This document shows positions 4,618-57,281 of a DNA stretch of 64,000 nucleotides, one piece after another. The stretch lies in sequence record MN850574.1. One strand, written 5' to 3'. Positions within the stretch are counted from its first letter, which is position 1, and each line of letters begins with the position of its first letter. Made by a program: the position numbers and the translations under genes. The stretch is from Escherichia phage kaaroe. The notes below the pieces were generated by a model. The model was not told the origin of the DNA. It was given only the letters and a program-made list of their open reading frames with translations, and did not search any database.

Positions 4618-6726
4618 ATGAAAATGCATATTGATAATGAAGAAGTATTTGGCAGTGACTTGAGCGGTGCGGTTGATTTTTCACTGAAAGCAAGTAGCAA
4701 GGCTTTTATGGTGCTTTCTAAGAACACTTATCAATATTGTGAACGTGCTTGCGTCCGTGAGTATTCGTGCAATGCTACCGACACTCACAAAGAAGCCGGA
4801 ACCTTAGATCGTCCGTTTGATATTCATTTACCGACTGCAATCGAACCGTATTTTTCTGTGCGTGATTATGGTACTGGTATTCCGTCTAAGAAAGAATTAG
4901 AACAACTGTTTACGGTTTACTTTGAATCAACAAAAGACCAGACTAATGATTATATCGGATCTTTTGGTTTAGGTGCGAAATCTGCTTATAGCTATACCGA
5001 CACCTTTACAATCGTAAACTATTACAATGGTCGCGCTTATGGCTTTACGGCATTTGTGCAAAACTCTATGCCGAAAATGGTGCAGATTTTCGACGAACCG
5101 ACCTATGAAGACAACGGTCTGAAAATCACTATTCCGGTGAAAGAAAAAGACATTCAGACATGGCATCGAGAAGCGCAATTTGTACTGCGTCATTTTGGGG
5201 AACACAAACCTAATATCAATGCAATCGAAATTAATTATTTCCCTAGCTTTGATAATTATTATGTGTGTAATGGGCGTGATAACGATTCCTATGTAGTATA
5301 TGCAATCATGGGTAAGATCCAGTATCCGATCCCGTATGAATATGTTCGCGGAACATGGTTAGAAGCTGTAAACCGCCAGCACCAGACCATTTACATTAAT
5401 TTTGAGTTGGGTGATCTGGACCTTATGCCATCGCGTGAAGAAGTTCACTTGTCAATTGAGACTAAAGCGAACATCGAAAAACGCATTGCAGAAATCAATG
5501 AAATGATGTTGGAAAAGGTTAAAGAAAAGATCGCCAACATTAAAACAGAGCGTAAACTTGCGCAATTTATGAGCGAGTATTCATCGACTCAACGCAATAT
5601 TATTAGCAAGATGGGTAAGATCGGACAATGGGACGATCCGGTAGCAATCTATAATAAGTTTGTTAATGCGGGTAAAGATTCGCCTAATGACGTAGAAGGT
5701 CAGGTGTATACTCTGTATCGTACTCGTCACACAATAAGTAAATTGCGCCCTGCTTTCGTTAGCAGTCAATACAACATTACGCATTTTGTATGGATGCATA
5801 AAGAAGATATTACGTGTCTTATTGATGATACCGATAAACCGAAACTGCGTGCACTGACTCTTAACGGCATGGTCCAGGAATACGGCATCAATAAAAAGGT
5901 ACTGGTGTTCCGTCAGAAAAACGAAAAACATATGGAGACTTTCGAGTACATCAAACAGTATTATGATGATTCTGAAATGACCGTGATTAAAGTGTCTGAG
6001 GCCGATGATCTGCGTGCTAAAGCAGTTAAACCGGAGAAGACCGAGCGTACACAACGTGAAGCGACTCCTAAGCTGCCTAACGTGTATATCATGGAAAAGA
6101 TTGGTGACAGTTGGCATAAAACCAGCCATCACATGAAAGCGGCAGAGATTCGCGAGTTATCAGGCTTGCACATGTTCCGCGTAGGTGATGCATTCGAAAG
6201 CCGTAGTCGTAAATCGATCCATAGTGAAAATACATTACACACGGCGCTTGACTACTTCGGGGTAACAAAGTATATTATTACTCGAAACGAGACACAAAAA
6301 TATCTCGTTGACGAACAATTGGAATGTGCGCTAGAATTTGTTCGCGGTAAGCTGGCTGGTCTGGCTAAGAAGGTTAAGACCAATCATCTGGGGTATGGCG
6401 AATATCTGGGTGTGATCACTATGTTGTTTCATGACGATGAACTAGAACGCTGTGTTCCAGAATTTATTGACAGACTGTACGGTCGTCATTATAATAAAGA
6501 GGTTTCCAAGTTACTCCTTCGTACTCGTTGGATTATGGACGCAGAAACTAAAAAGATTTGTGATGAAAAATTCACGGTAGCAAACGAACGAATTAAAGCA
6601 GTTTGTGCGAAGTTTAAAGAGAATAGCCCGTTACTGTATGATATTGTAGATAACTGGTATCGTATTCTGCATAATGACAAACGCGCACAAGACTTTATGA
6701 AACTGGTTAAGAATGTTAAATTTTAA
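4618..6726 (+). CDS. rIIA: rIIA protein (membrane-associated, GHKL ATPase-like N-terminal domain)
   Basis: 702 aa; HATPase-like motifs (DYGTGIP, GSFGLGAKSAY); rIIA-rIIB-like pair following gene 39 as in T4. Confidence 0.85.
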   Translation: MKMHIDNEEVFGSDLSGAVDFSLKASSKAFMVLSKNTYQYCERACVREYSCNATDTHKEAGTLDRPFDIHLPTAIEPYFSVRDYGTGIPSKKELEQLFTVYFESTKDQTNDYIGSFGLGAKSAYSYTDTFTIVNYYNGRAYGFTAFVQNSMPKMVQIFDEPTYEDNGLKITIPVKEKDIQTWHREAQFVLRHFGEHKPNINAIEINYFPSFDNYYVCNGRDNDSYVVYAIMGKIQYPIPYEYVRGTWLEAVNRQHQTIYINFELGDLDLMPSREEVHLSIETKANIEKRIAEINEMMLEKVKEKIANIKTERKLAQFMSEYSSTQRNIISKMGKIGQWDDPVAIYNKFVNAGKDSPNDVEGQVYTLYRTRHTISKLRPAFVSSQYNITHFVWMHKEDITCLIDDTDKPKLRALTLNGMVQEYGINKKVLVFRQKNEKHMETFEYIKQYYDDSEMTVIKVSEADDLRAKAVKPEKTERTQREATPKLPNVYIMEKIGDSWHKTSHHMKAAEIRELSGLHMFRVGDAFESRSRKSIHSENTLHTALDYFGVTKYIITRNETQKYLVDEQLECALEFVRGKLAGLAKKVKTNHLGYGEYLGVITMLFHDDELERCVPEFIDRLYGRHYNKEVSKLLLRTRWIMDAETKKICDEKFTVANERIKAVCAKFKENSPLLYDIVDNWYRILHNDKRAQDFMKLVKNVKF

Positions 6727-6931: not shown

Positions 6932-7924
6932 ATGACTAAAGCAAAAATCACCGTCTCTGACCGTAACGTTCAATGCCTGGATTCTGAAAAACAAATCAAA
7001 CTGGCTAAACAGTGGGGCGAAGGTAAGTTTACTACCCGCGAAGCACTTGCGGCAGCATTTGGGGTATCTCGTCGTACTGCCTCCCGTGTATTACTGATTC
7101 AGAAAGACGCAGTAGCGGAAGGTCGCAAGGCACTAGAAAAACGTAAAGCACGCCGTAAAACCAGTAAAGGAAAAGGCGGTGAACGCGCAAAAAAGCCCGT
7201 GACTACTTCCTCAAAAATCGTAGCAATAGCCTCAACTAAGTTTATTACTATTACATGTGGTGACATTGTTTATACTGCTGATCCATCGCATGTTAACTTT
7301 AATGAAGCACTGGAAGCGATTAAACATAATGATTTCATCAAAGCTATTACGCTGATTGACATTAAGAAAGCGGTTGAAGTATATTATCACGGCGCTTTCC
7401 GTATCGAAAATGGTATTGTGTATTATCATAATATTGTTCTTGATAATAATCTGACTCGTCGAGTTGTGGAGTCGATTAAAGAGAATAAGCCATATACGCA
7501 CTATCTGAACTTCTTTGAGAAGTGCAAGAAGAATCCTAGCCGTAAGGCGGTAGATCGTCTGTTTGACTTCTTAGAGCACAACGACATTGAGATCGGGGAA
7601 GATGGTTGTTTCTATGCATGGAAACGTGTTGATGTTGATTATAAAGATTTCTTTACGCATACGTTTGATAATAGCCCAGGGCGCACGGTTAAAATGAAGC
7701 GTAAAGACGTGGACCCAGATGATGATCGCACTTGCTCTAATGGCCTCCACGTTGCAGCGAAACACTATATTCCTCACTATGGCGGTGGACGAGGCCGAAT
7801 CATTAAATGCAAAGTTGATCCGCGTCACGTTGTAAGTATCCCGAAAGATTATGCGAATGCCAAAATGCGCTGCCATCGTTACTATGTGGTTGAAGATGTA
7901 ACCGAAGGTTTTAGCCATTACTAA
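6932..7924 (+). CDS. rIIB: rIIB protein
   Basis: Internal ATG 11 nt after AGAGGA SD; ~330 aa; directly downstream of rIIA. Confidence 0.8.
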   Translation: MTKAKITVSDRNVQCLDSEKQIKLAKQWGEGKFTTREALAAAFGVSRRTASRVLLIQKDAVAEGRKALEKRKARRKTSKGKGGERAKKPVTTSSKIVAIASTKFITITCGDIVYTADPSHVNFNEALEAIKHNDFIKAITLIDIKKAVEVYYHGAFRIENGIVYYHNIVLDNNLTRRVVESIKENKPYTHYLNFFEKCKKNPSRKAVDRLFDFLEHNDIEIGEDGCFYAWKRVDVDYKDFFTHTFDNSPGRTVKMKRKDVDPDDDRTCSNGLHVAAKHYIPHYGGGRGRIIKCKVDPRHVVSIPKDYANAKMRCHRYYVVEDVTEGFSHY

Positions 7925-7938
7925 CAGAGGAATTAATT

Positions 7939-8265
7939 ATGGTTGATATGAAAGTTACTTGCGAAAGTGCACATGTTGAAGTTGAAAGTAGCCAATATTC
8001 ATTGCGTCCGTCCGGTCGCGTTACTGTGACTATGGATGATGTTGATTTGGTTAATAATGTTAGTGTTGAAGATATCGTTAATGAGTATGATCATAGCGAA
8101 CTACTAGACGCAATTCCTGAACATGTTGTGATCCAGCACGTAGTAAGCAATAATGATCCATCGACTTTCATTAAAGAATATGGCGCTGATGAAATGCTCG
8201 ATGAAATTGGCGAAAAGATTGTTATTGCATGGCTTGAAAACAACGGTTATACTGTAGAACAATAA
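7939..8265 (+). CDS. hypothetical acidic protein (108 aa)
   Basis: ORF track; GAGGAA SD. Confidence 0.5.
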   Translation: MVDMKVTCESAHVEVESSQYSLRPSGRVTVTMDDVDLVNNVSVEDIVNEYDHSELLDAIPEHVVIQHVVSNNDPSTFIKEYGADEMLDEIGEKIVIAWLENNGYTVEQ

Positions 8266-8272
8266 TCAACAT

Positions 8273-8296
8273 AGGCCGCTTTGCGCGGCCTTTCTT
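8273..8296 (+). terminator. intrinsic terminator
   Basis: GGCCGC / GCGGCC stem followed by TTTCTT. Confidence 0.5.
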
Positions 8297-8310
8297 AGAG
8301 GGAATACATT

Positions 8311-8604
8311 ATGACGGTCACGGTTATTACCAAATACGACGACGAAAATGTGATTTACGGTGACGTGGTTGTTGTTCACGGTCGTAGCATGAAAGTTACT
8401 GGTAATTGTAAAGATGGTGCTATTATTTGCGGTGAATTGGTGAGAACAGTCAATCCTATCACCGACGAACAAAAGCGAGTCATTATCAGAAAACTTAAAG
8501 ACAGTGGATATTGTAACGTCGTGGTGATTCAAGAAAAAATTGAAGTAGGTCACTTATACACAAATCAGAAAACAATTCCTGTATCAATGGTTAAAGGCGG
8601 TTAA
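8311..8604 (+). CDS. hypothetical protein (97 aa)
   Basis: ORF track; GAGGGAA SD. Confidence 0.5.
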   Translation: MTVTVITKYDDENVIYGDVVVVHGRSMKVTGNCKDGAIICGELVRTVNPITDEQKRVIIRKLKDSGYCNVVVIQEKIEVGHLYTNQKTIPVSMVKGG

Positions 8605-10526: not shown

Positions 10527-10922
10527 ATGACTGAACGACGCATTACTTCAAATGGTTTGGGTACTCATCATGCCTGGATGGTTGACCCAGACAAAAATCC
10601 TTATAAACTTTACGATACAACGATTAAACCGTGGAATAATGGCGTATGGAAAACACCACCCACAACAGCACCTATTATGACTGATCAGAAACCGTTTAGC
10701 CCGATGGCGGAACCAGTACAGATTAAGCCGTTACCTTACCAGATAACGACGAATAGCATCACCAACAAACAAGAAAATGATATTGATATGATCTACGAGA
10801 TGATTAAACTTTGGCGTGATGTTTATCTGGGTGTTCTCTGCAACACAGATAAAAGTGCACATGCGGCAGCGGTACTGGCATCTCATGCAGTAGACGAAGC
10901 CAAAAAGAAATTTAGTAAGTAA
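10527..10922 (+). CDS. hypothetical protein (131 aa)
   Basis: ORF track; AGAGGAAA SD. Confidence 0.5.
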   Translation: MTERRITSNGLGTHHAWMVDPDKNPYKLYDTTIKPWNNGVWKTPPTTAPIMTDQKPFSPMAEPVQIKPLPYQITTNSITNKQENDIDMIYEMIKLWRDVYLGVLCNTDKSAHAAAVLASHAVDEAKKKFSK

Positions 10923-10931
10923 CTGATTATT

Positions 10932-10958
10932 AAGCCGATCCTTGTGGTCGGCTTTTTT
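10932..10958 (+). terminator. intrinsic terminator
   Basis: AGCCGA / TCGGCT stem followed by TTTTTT. Confidence 0.6.
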
Positions 10959-10971
10959 ATTTTAAAAGTTG

Positions 10972-11000
10972 TTGACTTCCATAATCCATCATTGCATAAT
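10972..11000 (+). promoter_or_regulatory. sigma70-type early promoter
   Basis: TTGACT, 17-nt spacer, CATAAT, then conserved ACCAAACAAAAGGAGAATCAAAG leader. Confidence 0.5.
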
Positions 11001-11031
11001 ACACACATACCAAACAAAAGGAGAATCAAAG

Positions 11032-11304
11032 ATGAACAACGAAAACAGCAAAGTGTTGGCAATTGCAGATAAAGTAGGTTACTGGAAATGCTGGGATGAT
11101 ATGGAGAAATTAGGCGGTCGCTATCTCGATAACTTAGAGTTGCATTATTGCCAAGCGCGTAATGCAGAAGTTGCGGGAGTAGCAATCGAAGATATTCCGT
11201 CTAAAGTCTTCGGATTCTCTAAAGATGATACTCTAGAATATGTTTTCAAGGCTGTTATGGATCAAGCATGGGAAGACGCAGAGACACGCGCTCTTGACTG
11301 GTGA
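11032..11304 (+). CDS. hypothetical protein (90 aa)
   Basis: ATG after GGAGAATCA SD; track ORF 10969-11304 begins inside the promoter. Confidence 0.5.
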   Translation: MNNENSKVLAIADKVGYWKCWDDMEKLGGRYLDNLELHYCQARNAEVAGVAIEDIPSKVFGFSKDDTLEYVFKAVMDQAWEDAETRALDW

Positions 11305-11308
11305 TAAT

Positions 11309-11479
11309 ATGAACTGGTATAAAATTTGGAAAAATCAGGTGGAGGCTTATCTAGGGTATAAGCCAACCGACGAAGAATTACTTGAAGCAATGTACGAAGA
11401 CGGCTTAAATCCGAAAGTAGCCGCGCAAGAATACGCGGAATGGGTGAAGGTCGAAGATAACCTAAAGGGGAAACTATGA
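11309..11479 (+). CDS. hypothetical protein (56 aa)
   Basis: Internal ATG of track ORF 11240-11479, overlapping previous stop. Confidence 0.4.
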   Translation: MNWYKIWKNQVEAYLGYKPTDEELLEAMYEDGLNPKVAAQEYAEWVKVEDNLKGKL

Positions 11480-52081: not shown

Positions 52082-52110
52082 TTGACGGGGATCGGGAGAT
52101 CCCCTATAAT
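52082..52110 (+). promoter_or_regulatory. PeSL-like early promoter cassette
   Basis: TTGACG, GGGGATCGGGAGATCCCC, TATAAT; conserved leader. Confidence 0.6.
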
Positions 52111-52325: not shown

Positions 52326-52354
52326 TTGACAGGGGAGGATAACTCCCCTACAAT
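52326..52354 (+). promoter_or_regulatory. PeSL-like early promoter cassette
   Basis: TTGACA, GGGGAG-GATAA-CTCCCC, TACAAT; conserved leader. Confidence 0.6.
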
Positions 52355-52394: not shown

Positions 52395-52646
52395 ATGGCT
52401 AACATCGAAACCGCAAAGAAAATCGCTAAAGACCTGAACGTTAAAGGCTTCCGTAAACTGAAATTACAGCGTGTACGCTACACCATCGGCAAACAGTGCT
52501 CTTTCATGAGCGAAGAAGTTGCTAACAGCCTCATTGATAACCTGATTGCGGCTGGCTGGGAAGTTGCGGATCTGAAAACTTGCCGCGAACTGGCTAACAA
52601 AGGTCTTTTAGATTCTGTTACTATCAAACCAATGGGGGCAGCGTGA
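52395..52646 (+). CDS. hypothetical protein (83 aa); first gene of the coupled operon
   Basis: ORF track; GGAGAATCAAAC SD. Confidence 0.5.
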   Translation: MANIETAKKIAKDLNVKGFRKLKLQRVRYTIGKQCSFMSEEVANSLIDNLIAAGWEVADLKTCRELANKGLLDSVTIKPMGAA

Positions 52647-52888
52647 AAAGAAAATTAATTAAACGCAATAAGGAATTTCTTAATAACTGCATTAAGGCCG
52701 CTAATGGTTGGCCTTTGTGCCTCTTCCTTTATGATTGGTATTCTAAACAATCAGTTGAGGAAACACGACACTATAAGAAGATCAGAAAAGAATCATATAC
52801 AAAACAAGGCCGCATTAACGGACTTTACTTAATGTGGCACGGCAAAGAACCTTCTAAAATCTGCGTTGGATTAAAGGGGCGTATATGA
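52643..52888 (+). CDS. hypothetical basic protein (81 aa)
   Basis: ORF track; start overlaps previous stop. Confidence 0.5.
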   Translation: MKRKLIKRNKEFLNNCIKAANGWPLCLFLYDWYSKQSVEETRHYKKIRKESYTKQGRINGLYLMWHGKEPSKICVGLKGRI

Positions 52889-53601
52889 AACAAAAATTAA
52901 TATTCTGTAACTTTGACGGATCGGGGATAATGGGGCTAGAATGGGCTAAAGCAGGTCATAAGGTGATCTGCTTTAATGCTGACGATGGCGACCACGGCAC
53001 ATACAAAAAGTATAATACCAGATTTGAACACCCAAACATTACCTATGTAAACACATGGATTGATTTGAACTGGCTAGAAAGAGCAATGGACCTTGAATGG
53101 GGGAAACCGGATATTATCTTTGCATTCCCACCGTGCACCAATTTAGCTGTTAGTGGCGCTGCACACTTTGAACGAAAGAAACGAGAACAAGGACCATTGA
53201 TTCAAGTTCATGATGTAAGGGCAGCTAAAATAACCGCTTATTTGGGTGAATGGCTAGGAGTTCCCTACATGATAGAGAATCCTGTAAGCGTTATCTCTAG
53301 CATGTGGCGTAAGCCTGATTACATGTTCCACCCGTGGGAATATGGCGGTTATTTGCCGGAAGATGATAAACATCCTACTTTTCCTGAGTATATCGCCGCC
53401 CGTGATATGTACCCGAAAAAGACTTGCTTATGGACCGGACAAGGCTTTATAATGCCAGAAAAGAAACCGTTGCAGATTAATAAAGGGTACAGTAAACAGC
53501 ATTCTAAGCTAGGCGGGAAAGGAACGAAAACAAAGACTATCAGGTCACTTACCCCGCGAGGATTCGCAAAGGCAGTATTTGAAGCAAATAAGGATCTATG
53601 A
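52885..53601 (+). CDS. short DNA C5-cytosine methyltransferase-like protein (no obvious target-recognition domain)
   Basis: 238 aa; motif I-like FDGSGIMG, motif IV-like FPPCTNLAVSGA, motif VI-like IENPVSV. Confidence 0.55.
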   Translation: MKQKLIFCNFDGSGIMGLEWAKAGHKVICFNADDGDHGTYKKYNTRFEHPNITYVNTWIDLNWLERAMDLEWGKPDIIFAFPPCTNLAVSGAAHFERKKREQGPLIQVHDVRAAKITAYLGEWLGVPYMIENPVSVISSMWRKPDYMFHPWEYGGYLPEDDKHPTFPEYIAARDMYPKKTCLWTGQGFIMPEKKPLQINKGYSKQHSKLGGKGTKTKTIRSLTPRGFAKAVFEANKDL

Positions 53602-53936
53602 TGAGATTGTTTAAGTATTCGCTAACGTCAAATTACGATAAACAAGGTCATTGCATCCGTTGCCCTGATTGTCATAGCCATAACATCGAAAGCAAGATCA
53701 CCGATCATATTGATGGACTTTGGTCGCCAGCAAGTGAAATAGAATACTATTGCGCTGATTGTGGAATTGTAGTAGCATATTGGGCATACGGATCATATGA
53801 TCCATACTTCCAGATGGGAGAACGTTCAATCCCTGCGCTTATCTGGAGAATTAAGAACAATATCCGCTATTCATGGGATGAGTTCTTAAAAGATATTGAT
53901 TTACGTGATGATCCATTCAGGAGAACTATATTATGA
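53598..53936 (+). CDS. zinc-finger protein (112 aa)
   Basis: CIRCPDCHSH ... CADCG cysteine clusters; start overlaps previous stop. Confidence 0.5.
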   Translation: MMRLFKYSLTSNYDKQGHCIRCPDCHSHNIESKITDHIDGLWSPASEIEYYCADCGIVVAYWAYGSYDPYFQMGERSIPALIWRIKNNIRYSWDEFLKDIDLRDDPFRRTIL

Positions 53937-54112
53937 TAACACCACAACTACACGGTAAAGAGATTTGCGATCTTACTTGGGAAGAGTTGGTCATGTATCG
54001 CGACACCTACAAATGGTTTGAATCCATGAAAGAATTTGTAGCAGCAGTACGAGAAGAAATGAGCATTCGCCAGTATGCGGACGCATATATTGAAAAGGTA
54101 AGCACACTATGA
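53933..54112 (+). CDS. hypothetical protein (59 aa)
   Basis: MITPQLHGKEICDLTWEELVMYRDTYKWF...; overlaps neighbours on both sides; below track cutoff. Confidence 0.45.
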   Translation: MITPQLHGKEICDLTWEELVMYRDTYKWFESMKEFVAAVREEMSIRQYADAYIEKVSTL

Positions 54113-54627
54113 ACCGTTTAACGCCTAAACGCCGTTACTATACCAATACTAAAAACTTTGTCATCTCTGTTTATGAGGCGTGGTTAGAAGATGGCTTTAT
54201 CAACATGAACCCAGATTATCAGCGTCCTTTGGTATGGGACACCGAAAACAAACGTATGTTTATCGAAAACCTGATTAATGATTTTCCGGTTGGTGCTATC
54301 GCAATGGCTAAGATTGATGATGGCTCTCGCTATGAGATCGAAATCGTGGACGGTAAACAGCGTTTAAACGCAATATTCTCCTTCATGAAGGATGAGTTTA
54401 GCATTGCTGGTAATGATGATTCTATGTTGTATTACAGTGATTTTACGCCAGCAGAAAAGCGACGTTTCCGAAATCTCGGACTACCCGCGATCATGATGGA
54501 AGAGAGCACACGAGAAGACCGATTAGAGTATTTCTACAAAACAAACTTTTTCGGTGTGCCTCAATCGGAAGAACATCGCCAGCATGTGATTGCCCTATTG
54601 CAAGATGAGCAATTAAAAAATAACTAA
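54109..54627 (+). CDS. DUF262-like (ParB/Srx-fold, GmrSD/DndB N-terminal-type) domain protein
   Basis: 172 aa; PDYQRPLVWD...FPVGAIAMA...YEIEIVDGKQRLNAIFSF (DGQQR-type motif). Confidence 0.55.
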   Translation: MNRLTPKRRYYTNTKNFVISVYEAWLEDGFINMNPDYQRPLVWDTENKRMFIENLINDFPVGAIAMAKIDDGSRYEIEIVDGKQRLNAIFSFMKDEFSIAGNDDSMLYYSDFTPAEKRRFRNLGLPAIMMEESTREDRLEYFYKTNFFGVPQSEEHRQHVIALLQDEQLKNN

Positions 54628-54635
54628 AAAAGTTG

Positions 54636-54664
54636 TTGACAGGGGATCATCGATCCCCTATAAT
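54636..54664 (+). promoter_or_regulatory. PeSL-like early promoter cassette
   Basis: TTGACA, GGGGATCATCGATCCCC, TATAAT; conserved leader. Confidence 0.6.
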
Positions 54665-55229: not shown

Positions 55230-57281
55230 ATGTTTAACTTAGAAATCGACGATCTAATGATTGAATCTTTCGAGAAATGGCTGTTGACGGAAGAGGAAGA
55301 AAACTTTGGCAGTATTGCTCCGGTACAGTGCTTAAAGCCTAAGCAGAATCCTAAACAGCTTTTTGCAGTACAGACACGCGATAAAGATGTGATTGTCCGT
55401 CTTTGTAACTTCACCAACAAAACACCTAAAATCATTCGTATGGGTGACAAGACCGCACATGTTGTACTGTGCGAAATGAACAAAAGCGGTCGTATTGTAC
55501 AGCTTAAAAATGGTCTAGGCGATAACCCGATTGCAGTTATGTCAAGTGCTTTTGATGTGGTTATGGAAACAGCCCGTAAAGCGCAATTAGACGCTGTTAT
55601 GTTCCGTTTTAACGTATCCCGCATGAAAGGTAAGACCGAACTGGTTAAGCGCGTTATAGAGCGTTTGGTGCGTCGTACACCGAAGTTTGAAGTATTCCAG
55701 CAGGAAGTAATGACCAGCAAAAAGATCGCTTTAGTTGTTGTCAAGCGTCGCGGGATGGCGATTGATAAGATTAAAGGTATTAAACTTGATGAATCCTTGT
55801 TCACTAAAGTAGAAAGTGATTTAGGTGATCGCTGGGTATCTAAGGCTACTGGTGAATCTCTGACTAAAGATGAGGCATATGCGGCTAGTCTTGTGTCAGA
55901 AGAAGAACGAAACGCGGAAGCAGAACAACGCGTAGCGGCTAAATCTCGTTTGACTAAAGAAGAAATGCTGAAAACTCAAGCGACATATAACAGCGACTAC
56001 GTGAATCATCCAGAAAAAATTAATCTTAAACCGGAAGAAGATATCACCGAAGCAGAACCTAAGAAACAGTTTAATACTCTGATTGACCGTCAAGCCTTAG
56101 AACGTTCAACCGCCCGTTCTCTGAATGACTGGACAAGTGATATTATCACTCGCTATGGTTTCATGCGTACTATTTTTGAAAGCGAAGCCGATGCAAAATA
56201 CGCAGTAAGCGAACTGGTAAAAGTTCAGGATCAATATGATCCATTGTCTGCGGAAGTTATCGCAGCCTCGGTCAAACGCTTAAAAGAAATCATGAGCGAG
56301 GAAGTATTCGAAAACAAGATCACCGCCCTGGCAATGGATCGAGTAGACCAGTCTATGCCAGCAGATGTAAAAGCTGAAATGCTGCGTAGTCATATCACCC
56401 AGATTAAAACAGATGCCCTACGTAATATTGCCTCCGGTATGTTTGAAGCAATTGCTAGCAACATGGGTGAAATGATGGCAGATATTGATCTTGATCTGCC
56501 GGGCGCGGAAGGTTTTGTGTTGAGCGAATATGCCGATGCAGCATACATCAATATGAACAACTTCCTAACCGACCGTAAGCTGGAAGAGTTTGAAGGCATC
56601 GCAGATCCAGAAGAATTGGTCAAGATGTGCGATGCACTGGATAATGCCTTCTCCAACTATGGCGTTAAACTTGATCCGGGTACTATTCTGTATCGTGGTA
56701 TGGACTTCCGGTCGCAAATGTGGGAAACTGCACGTAAGCAAAAAGCGTTTTACTTTAAAAACTATGTGAGCACTTCCCTTGCACCTAACATTTTTGGCGG
56801 CTGGAATGCAAACGTGGCTAGTGCCGTTGCTGGTGTTGATTCTATGGCTGGCTCTCGCGGTGAAGGTGGCGCTAATGTTGCTTTCTCCATTGCTGGCGCG
56901 GAAAACATCCCTGTATTGCCAGTAGGTAACAAAGCATTTGCTTACAAAGAATGCGAGATTTTACTTCCTCGCGGTGTTGTGTTATCCTTTGATACGGTAA
57001 CTCGTGCTACGGCATCGACGGATTCACAAGAAACTTATTACATCGAGGCACATATTATGAACAAAAATGAACTGGCAGCATTACAAGAATCTGGCGAGAT
57101 GATCGCGGACGGTGATGCATTCATCCGTGAAGGTGTTGTTAAACCGGCTTCTGACCTGTCTTTCTCCAGCTTCATTAGCGAAGCTAAAACCGAACGTAAG
57201 AAAGCAGATAAGGCAACTCTACGTCAGCTTATCGCTGATCTGGTATCTGTAGACGCAATGCCAGATAAATTTAAAATGTAA
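55230..57281 (+). CDS. alt: Alt-like ADP-ribosyltransferase (packaged RNA polymerase-modifying enzyme)
   Basis: 683 aa (T4 Alt is of similar length); C-terminal R-S-E triad (LYRG, YVSTSL, ECEILLPRG); between ligase and baseplate genes. Confidence 0.8.
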   Translation: MFNLEIDDLMIESFEKWLLTEEEENFGSIAPVQCLKPKQNPKQLFAVQTRDKDVIVRLCNFTNKTPKIIRMGDKTAHVVLCEMNKSGRIVQLKNGLGDNPIAVMSSAFDVVMETARKAQLDAVMFRFNVSRMKGKTELVKRVIERLVRRTPKFEVFQQEVMTSKKIALVVVKRRGMAIDKIKGIKLDESLFTKVESDLGDRWVSKATGESLTKDEAYAASLVSEEERNAEAEQRVAAKSRLTKEEMLKTQATYNSDYVNHPEKINLKPEEDITEAEPKKQFNTLIDRQALERSTARSLNDWTSDIITRYGFMRTIFESEADAKYAVSELVKVQDQYDPLSAEVIAASVKRLKEIMSEEVFENKITALAMDRVDQSMPADVKAEMLRSHITQIKTDALRNIASGMFEAIASNMGEMMADIDLDLPGAEGFVLSEYADAAYINMNNFLTDRKLEEFEGIADPEELVKMCDALDNAFSNYGVKLDPGTILYRGMDFRSQMWETARKQKAFYFKNYVSTSLAPNIFGGWNANVASAVAGVDSMAGSRGEGGANVAFSIAGAENIPVLPVGNKAFAYKECEILLPRGVVLSFDTVTRATASTDSQETYYIEAHIMNKNELAALQESGEMIADGDAFIREGVVKPASDLSFSSFISEAKTERKKADKATLRQLIADLVSVDAMPDKFKM

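Follow-up and report, generated by a model that had tools for sequence, protein, structure and literature searches.

A minimal stand-alone DUF262 domain protein of compact NsnA type in a Krischvirus cassette with an early-type promoter, and its candidate functions

DUF262 is the sensing module in at least six anti-phage systems (GmrSD/BrxU, SspE, DndI, Menshen, Dazbog, and PD-T4-2), and its sensing mechanism is only partly understood. The domain acts as the sensor in every system that has been characterised (PMC10952713, PMC12065111), and is defined by the motifs QRxxxW, DGxQR and FxxxN (PMC12065111). In NsnA, DndB, GmrSD, and SspE it is followed by a DNA-binding domain, ParBDB (PMC12065111), and the pocket of the characterised relatives serves either NTPase-coupled sensing of modified DNA, as in SspE, or NTP-dependent oligomeric changes, as in BrxU and ParB (PMC10952713, PMC12704722). 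Among these systems, Menshen was reported to restrict T2, T4, and T6, and PD-T4-2 was selected with T4 (PMC12065111, PMC10952713). Short single-domain phage proteins were noted in a survey of the ParB fold, but the survey was built on PF02195 and did not include DUF262 (PMC12704722). No characterised stand-alone DUF262 protein of a phage was found in the literature searched, nor were any anti-Menshen or anti-PD-T4-2 factors.

Here, we describe a phage gene that encodes a DUF262 domain and little else (Table 1). It was identified in a window of 64,000 nt (i.e., the whole stretch of DNA that was analysed), in which no second DUF262 copy is present. The source genome belongs to Krischvirus, the RB49/Phi1/JSE group of T4-like coliphages, and is 99.6% identical to Escherichia phage FL04, also a Krischvirus, over the 3-kb region compared.

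Table 1. Coordinates of the DUF262 gene, its motifs and the surrounding features in the window
Feature	Position	Strand	Length or sequence	Basis or remark
DUF262 gene (minimal NsnA-type, ParB/Srx-fold), ortholog of RB49p187	54109..54627	+	172 aa	ATG to TAA
Motif I, QRxxxW	54217..54237	+	Y37-Q38-R39-P-L-V-W43	Y37, Q38, R39, W43 invariant in 60 diverse relatives
Motif II, DGxQR	54349..54366	+	D81-G-K-Q-R-L86	D81, G82, K83, Q84 invariant; R85 98%
Motif III, FxxxN, and tail	54532..54576	+	F142-x3-N146, then G149-V-P-Q-S-E-E-H156	Conservation and BrxU alignment
Five genes upstream of the DUF262 gene, with stop/start overlaps	52395..54112	+		ORF coordinates
83-aa gene, then 81-aa gene	Head of 52395..54112 cassette	+	83 aa; 81 aa	
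Dcm-like methyltransferase gene	52885-53601	+	238 aa	PHROG 757 'DNA methyltransferase', E 2e-90
Zn-ribbon protein gene	53598-53936	+	112 aa	PHROG 2993; weak Pfam Zn-ribbon match
Orphan ORF between Zn-ribbon and DUF262 genes	53933-54112	+	59 aa	
Alt-like RNA-polymerase ADP-ribosyltransferase gene	55230-57281	+	683 aa	PF03496, E 2e-9
PeSL-like element	52082-52110	+		Near-consensus sigma-70, spacer stem-loop
PeSL-like early promoter (putative)	52326..52354	+	TTGACA-17-TACAAT; spacer stem-loop GGGGAG/CTCCCC	Consensus scan, 11/12
Next PeSL-like promoter	54636..54664	+	TTGACA-17-TATAAT; stem-loop GGGGATC/GATCCCC	12/12

A complete but minimal DUF262 domain

The 172-aa protein matches PF03235 (GmrSD_N, formerly DUF262) with 72.9 bits and an E-value of 5.2e-20, far above the gathering cut-off of 33.2 bits, over residues 27-122 and profile positions 6-105 of 199, and no other Pfam domain was detected in it. 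It also matches PHROG 1583 (E 1.5e-52), a family to which no function is assigned. The top match in PADLOC is NsnA (E 8e-21), with residues 13-150 aligned to profile positions 47-188 of 385, followed by PD-T4-2_A (E 6e-12), and both models outrank the restriction-enzyme and 'Orf5'/HEC models. Nothing was matched in NCBIfam, and when the PDB was searched with the single sequence, only background matches to sliding clamps came up. The match to DUF262 is far beyond chance. A DGQQR-type DUF262 domain in a short stand-alone phage protein had been proposed by a sequence-only reading of this DNA, from segments located at residues 35-44 (PDYQRPLVWD), 59-67 (FPVGAIAMA) and 80-92 (VDGKQRLNAIFSF), and both the domain and its stand-alone occurrence are borne out by the profile matches, the ParB/Srx fold, the presence of PF03235 only, and the single copy in the window of a Krischvirus. 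The outcome that would have overturned that reading, a profile search without significant matches, did not occur.

Three motifs make up the nucleotide pocket, and all of them are intact. Conservation was scored across 60 diverse relatives, in which F142, N146, G149, Q152, and H156 of motif III and its tail are invariant, as are nearly all positions listed for motifs I and II (Table 1). Motif II, the predicted NTP-binding centre, reads DGKQR, with Lys in place of the first Gln of the canonical DGQQR. In a profile search of the PDB, motifs I and II align to DndI, BrxU, and SspE, motif II falling on the DGQQR of these proteins, and motif III aligns to 'FIRMNSGGT' of BrxU, while the phage protein has none of the long insertions found in the host domains. 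An AlphaFold2 model built from a 60-sequence alignment (pLDDT 94.5, pTM 0.87) has the ParB/Srx fold, with just two helices C-terminal of motif III. Taken together, the gene product is a DUF262 domain of ParB/Srx fold that is minimal yet complete, and it belongs to the compact type seen in NsnA and PD-T4-2_A.

Cellular proteins with the family signatures are 340-450 amino acids long, and those tested match the PADLOC NsnA model over nearly the full length (E 1e-36 to 1e-48), with PD-T4-2_A second (1e-24 to 1e-28). When the phage family was aligned with 30 of these NsnA-like proteins by hhalign (99.9%, E 1.4e-32), phage residues 10-152 matched residues 4-156 of 342 in 143 co-linear columns. In comparison with proteins of at least 600 amino acids (GmrSD-sized), only columns 19-94 (76 columns) aligned. 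The cellular relatives were fetched with a DGKQRL pattern, so the Lys they share with the phage protein is partly circular, but the PADLOC assignment of the 172-aa protein to NsnA is independent of this pattern. Because the alignment is co-linear with the NsnA-like N-terminus, the phage protein equals the ParB-DUF262 sensor domain of NsnA-type proteins alone. It shares only about 26-35% identity with the N-domains of enterobacterial NsnA-like proteins, and hence is no recent capture.

These comparisons also bear on which enzyme families the protein resembles. The sequence-only reading had placed it with the N-terminal domain of GmrSD; the domain type stands, as PF03235 is matched, but the closest relatives are NsnA (Menshen) and PD-T4-2_A rather than GmrSD. 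The 172-aa protein, whose domain had also been likened to that of DndB/SspE-like proteins, has neither a match to the DndB Pfam model (PF14072) nor the SspE architecture with DUF1524. A DUF1524/HNH nuclease was absent by Pfam from both the protein and the adjacent genes (the Zn-ribbon gene, the 59-aa ORF, and small hypothetical genes).

Since the fold is that of the ParB CTPases, and since a homolog in Pantoea phage Phynn is annotated as a partitioning protein and some records use 'chromosome partitioning protein', a classical ParB-type partition or transcription-silencing protein was considered. However, the Pfam match is to PF03235 and not to ParBc, no PF02195 or HTH match was found by Pfam, the protein has no C-terminal dimerisation domain and no GERRxR box, neither parS nor a parA near the gene was found, and the carrier is a strictly lytic T4-like phage. 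A function of this kind is therefore extremely improbable, and a partition role is effectively refuted by the architecture of the protein. The protein is acidic (pI 5.05, net charge -6.3; median pI of the family core 5.35), and is thus no obvious DNA binder by itself.

Conservation and distribution of the phage family

Every one of the 56 matching Krischvirus records, those of RB49, Phi1, JSE, TB34, and SAP among them, contains the gene at full length, with 96-100% nucleotide identity. The RB49 ortholog, RB49p187, is annotated as 'hypothetical protein', and orthologs or homologs in the records of W115, Sf20, and Cronuts already carry the DUF262 label; the domain annotation itself is therefore already known, from these few GenBank records and PHROG 1583. 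Among six orthologs, dN/dS (Nei-Gojobori) is 0.01-0.09 in all pairs with dS above 0.08, which means that the gene is under strong purifying selection. It is a functional, constrained gene in Krischvirus.

In all, the gene occurs in 301 phage records. A word-indexed search returned 2,875 family proteins, and an exhaustive profile search of cluster representatives gave 17,154 matches at E<=1e-3, 5,236 at E<=1e-10 and 70 at E<=1e-30. T4-like phages with family members infect Klebsiella, Enterobacter, Cronobacter, Citrobacter, Pantoea, Pectobacterium, and Yersinia, and the family extends to jumbo phages, temperate phages of Moraxella and Salmonella, many uncultured phage contigs, and prophage-like regions of bacterial genomes. 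For example, in a lambdoid prophage of Salmonella enterica (L008), the early-left operon has a 171-aa homolog (8001-8516) directly behind recE/recT and a 77-aa gene. Downstream of this homolog come a gene with an Nmad5 (nucleotide-modification-associated) domain (10820-11452), at a distance of 2.3 kb, and then xis/int.

The close family has two architectures, of about 160-190 and about 260-296 amino acids, the latter with an N-terminal extension, and both carry PF03235 only by Pfam. In a model of the long form (pLDDT 92.4), the extension consists of a helix and a small five-stranded beta-barrel preceding the same compact DUF262 core. A search by Pfam for enzymatic fusion partners among family members of odd length (the Rosetta-stone approach) found none. 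Long-form homologs are found near Tad2-like, RtcB, and RNA-ligase genes; in a 111-kb phage contig (L013; sites 5845-6132 and 7001-7861), a long-form member is two genes from a Tad2-like gene (anti-Thoeris family) and near RtcB, DUF488, and a short C5-methylase gene. The GVPQSxEH tail that follows motif III is specific to the phage family: the signature N..G.P.S..H occurs in 42 of 83 compact loci, and among 57 longer matches only in one, a viral long form (L066). Based on DGKQR together with GVPQSxEH, the phage family is a distinct, compact, phage-specific DUF262 subfamily that consists of the sensor domain alone.

A structure search of BFVD found the compact DUF262 fold in the giant eukaryotic viruses Indivirus, Catovirus, Hokovirus, and Yasminevirus (TM-score 0.72-0.75 on the query), and in a 'putative nuclease' of Tunisvirus. 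These giant-virus proteins are 300-480 amino acids long and have longer C-terminal regions.

The conservation described above may point to an autonomous enzyme, namely a single-domain ParB/Srx-fold NTPase or phosphotransferase like sulfiredoxin and SerK, or an NTP-dependent nickase comparable to Osa and other ParB-like nucleases, whose target in early takeover would be DNA, nucleotides, or a host protein. Three observations favour an enzyme: no residues other than those of the pocket are invariant, purifying selection is strong, and the family spans phages of many phyla. However, the 172-aa protein lacks the catalytic Cys of the GCHR motif of sulfiredoxin and any recognisable nuclease motif, it is acidic and without the ParBDB that SspE needs for DNA binding (PMC12065111), and the gene context points to no substrate. 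We consider such an enzyme possible, with considerable doubt; if correct, it would lengthen the short list of single-domain ParB/Srx enzymes.

Cassette and gene neighbourhood

In this genome, six genes are chained together by overlapping stop and start codons (52395-54627), the DUF262 gene coming last; this cassette is located in a hyperplastic region upstream of alt. PeSL elements were described for the hyperplastic regions of RB49 and Phi1 (PMC4122927). Seven PeSL-like elements, i.e., near-consensus sigma-70 promoters with a G4...C4 stem-loop in the 17-nt spacer, occur in the window, all of them on the + strand. One of them heads the cassette and another marks its 3' boundary (Table 1), and this bracketing is consistent with the PeSL-mediated module shuffling in RB49/Phi1. 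As the cassette promoters match PeSL elements, the cassette would be expected to be expressed early. In related records, the Alt-like gene is followed by a second, shorter ADP-ribosyltransferase gene.

The 59-aa ORF between the Zn-ribbon and DUF262 genes has ATGA overlaps at both ends and no Pfam or PHROG match. Among 50,697 phage records it was found only in this phage and FL04, and in other Krischviruses the Zn-ribbon and DUF262 genes abut without it. In most Krischviruses the 112-aa Zn-ribbon gene is directly upstream of the DUF262 gene. A distant family member of 344 amino acids (P0155) has an N-terminal CxxC...CxxC Zn ribbon fused to the barrel and the DUF262 core. Together with the Zn-ribbon gene of the cassette, this fusion may be a coincidence, or may hint that the two proteins work jointly.

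The Dcm-like protein has the motif FPPCTNLAVSG, matches the Pfam C5-MTase only at E 0.027, and has no sequence relative in the PDB; at 238 amino acids, it is too short for a normal target-recognition domain. Its presence in the same overlapping-gene cassette, along with the Zn-ribbon gene, raises the possibility that the DUF262 protein helps this methyltransferase or another DNA-modification pathway, by targeting or regulating the modification of phage DNA in the manner of phage ParB-methyltransferase fusions, DndB, or DpdB. Fusions of the ParB fold with methyltransferases are enriched in phages (PMC12704722), and the Nmad5 gene near the Salmonella prophage homolog would fit the same role. Further, the Krischvirus SAP was reported in 2026 to have T-even-type cytosine modifications, with the same profile as seven Tequatrovirus phages of the same collection, while TB34, 99.96% identical to it, has canonical cytosine, a difference for which no genetic explanation or origin is known (PMC13390438). 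However, the DUF262 ortholog is 99.2% identical to that of the window in both SAP (OZ034687) and TB34 (OX001802), and therefore gives no lead to the SAP modification. HpaII and NheI, both methyl-sensitive, were also reported to cut RB49 DNA (PMC4041780). In addition, the Dcm-like gene occurs in 1,521 phage records, mostly of unrelated siphoviruses, vs. 301 for the DUF262 gene; the two sets overlap little outside Krischvirus, and other T4-like genera have unrelated upstream genes, of PHROG 7472, instead of a methyltransferase or Zn-ribbon gene. A helper role in DNA modification is thus very unlikely. Linkage with the Dcm-like gene was itself rejected, given these counts and the different phage groups.

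Neighbouring genes vary among five T4-like genera, as assessed by tblastn and PHROG. The upstream gene belongs to PHROG 2993 (Zn-ribbon) in Krischvirus and to PHROG 7472 in Cronobacter phage Cronuts and the Klebsiella phage loci examined, and is different again in Pantoea phage Phynn; outside Krischvirus, linkage to the DUF262 gene is seen for none of the five other cassette genes. A wider analysis covered four genes on either side at 83 compact-family loci (69 viral and 14 bacterial), which form 32 clusters at 60% identity. No neighbour family was common to more than three of the 32 clusters, and none had a fixed position at the 83 loci, bearing in mind that crude ORF calling and BLAST-level grouping limit the detection of partners. 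With no recurrent neighbour, and with record counts that differ from those of the Dcm-like gene, the behaviour of the DUF262 gene is therefore that of an accessory module made up of one gene, mobile and autonomous.

This autonomy is relevant to whether the protein is a phage-borne defence or superinfection-exclusion sensor, which would detect the DNA of a competitor (e.g., a modified T-even phage) and pass the signal on to an effector encoded at another phage locus or by the host. Sensing is what DUF262 does in every characterised system (PMC10952713, PMC12065111), and Krischvirus DNA is unmodified, so a sensor of modification would spare self (PMC4041780). Small defence genes are also common in phages (bioRxiv 2024.10.26.620412), and homologs in Klebsiella phages are flagged as defence proteins by Pharokka/DefenseFinder, although this flag stems from the domain alone. 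On the other hand, the protein lacks an effector domain, and no neighbour is conserved across the 32 independent clusters; multi-gene defence systems are normally co-located. We regard an exclusion sensor as unlikely.

A candidate decoy and its relation to known systems

Our preferred reading, which we put forward tentatively, is that the 172-aa protein is an NTP-binding decoy of DUF262 defences of the NsnA, PD-T4-2_A, or DzbA type, reduced to the sensor domain. This is suggested by its closeness to NsnA, the cut at the domain boundary, the early accessory placement (including the sites near Tad2-like, RtcB, and RNA-ligase genes and behind recE/recT) and the autonomy of its gene, and the absence of the family from T4. 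The intact domain, fold, and motifs, the constraint on the gene, and the acidity of the protein are counted in its favour too. T4, which Menshen reportedly restricts along with T2 and T6, has no family member (six-frame HMM scan; best E 0.04 vs. 3e-59 for the positive control).

Under the decoy reading, the protein would be made early in infection. By analogy with characterised relatives, it would bind NTP, and perhaps hydrolyse it, in the QRxxxW/DGKQR/FxxxN pocket, and NTP binding would probably alter its association state, as in other ParB-fold modules. The decoy might then capture the ligand that is read by NsnA (Menshen), PD-T4-2_A, DzbA (Dazbog), and BrxU-like enzymes, or might co-assemble with bacterial DUF262 sensors through an NTP-dependent ParB-type interface. 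As a point against the decoy, AlphaFold 3 predicted, in the Menshen study, neither self-association of NsnA nor association with its partners. Lacking the part that couples to an effector, the decoy would in either case blunt the activation of DUF262 defences.

Mimicry or antagonism of host defence, which had been suggested for this gene from the outset, is compatible with these results as a hypothesis. GmrSD itself is an unlikely target, since RB49-type phages have unmodified cytosine, RB49 being without hmC or glucosylation (PMC4041780), and since the Krischvirus TB34, with canonical cytosine, is immune to the GmrSD-family enzyme BrxU (PMC13390438).

Against the decoy reading, the invariant residues of the catalytic pocket fit an enzyme at least as well. 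Purifying selection and the spread over phages of many phyla and giant viruses suggest a generic biochemical role and are not what an inhibitor of patchily occurring defence systems would lead one to expect. The low identity to enterobacterial NsnA-like N-domains and the pattern-based choice of the cellular relatives weigh against it too. The autonomous enzyme described above is therefore nearly as likely as the decoy, and the remaining probability lies with functions outside the readings given here.

Phages are not known to have a countermeasure to Menshen, Dazbog, or PD-T4-2. If the decoy reading is true, Menshen, PD-T4-2, Dazbog, or GmrSD-like sensor systems would have their first known inhibitor in this protein, which would also be a new class of anti-defence and a ready-made tool. 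The idea is directly testable, as the gene is found in RB49-like phages but not in T4. Irrespective of function, this small, soluble-looking, constrained phage family offers a minimal model for nucleotide and ligand binding by DUF262.

Among known ParB-fold proteins, the phage protein differs from the ParB-like domain of PadC, sulfiredoxin, and the short phage proteins of ParB-CTPase fold, which have PF02195 or Srx in place of PF03235, and PadC/sulfiredoxin-type proteins have GERRxR or GCHR pocket motifs in place of DGKQR. GmrSD/BrxU and SspE/DndI differ in their DUF1524/HNH nuclease, middle helical domain, and long insertions, none of which is present in the phage protein, and GmrSD-type enzymes and SspE/DndI read DGQQR where the phage protein reads DGKQR. 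PD-T4-2_A is the second-best PADLOC match, but only the first ~75 domain residues align, and PD-T4-2 has a HEPN partner gene that the phage gene lacks.

The closest likeness is to NsnA of Menshen (NsnABC), with which the protein shares the compact ParB-DUF262 subtype and the motifs QRxxxW, DG(K)QR, and FxxxN. In contrast to NsnA, it ends without a C-terminal ParBDB, leaving positions of about 189-385 of the NsnA profile unmatched, and motif III is followed by GVPQSxEH instead of NRxGExLxxQE. Menshen also has the ABC-ATPase NsnB and the effector NsnC, neither of which flanks the phage gene in the window or at related loci. More broadly, it is conceivable, but doubtful, that the protein is the first representative of a large class of immune decoys, spread throughout phages and consisting of the sensor domain only, which would titrate the trigger of Menshen, PD-T4-2, Dazbog, and GmrSD-like sensors or poison their NTP-dependent assembly. 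Such a class, if true, would be the bacterial-virus counterpart of the pyrin-only and CARD-only proteins of poxviruses.
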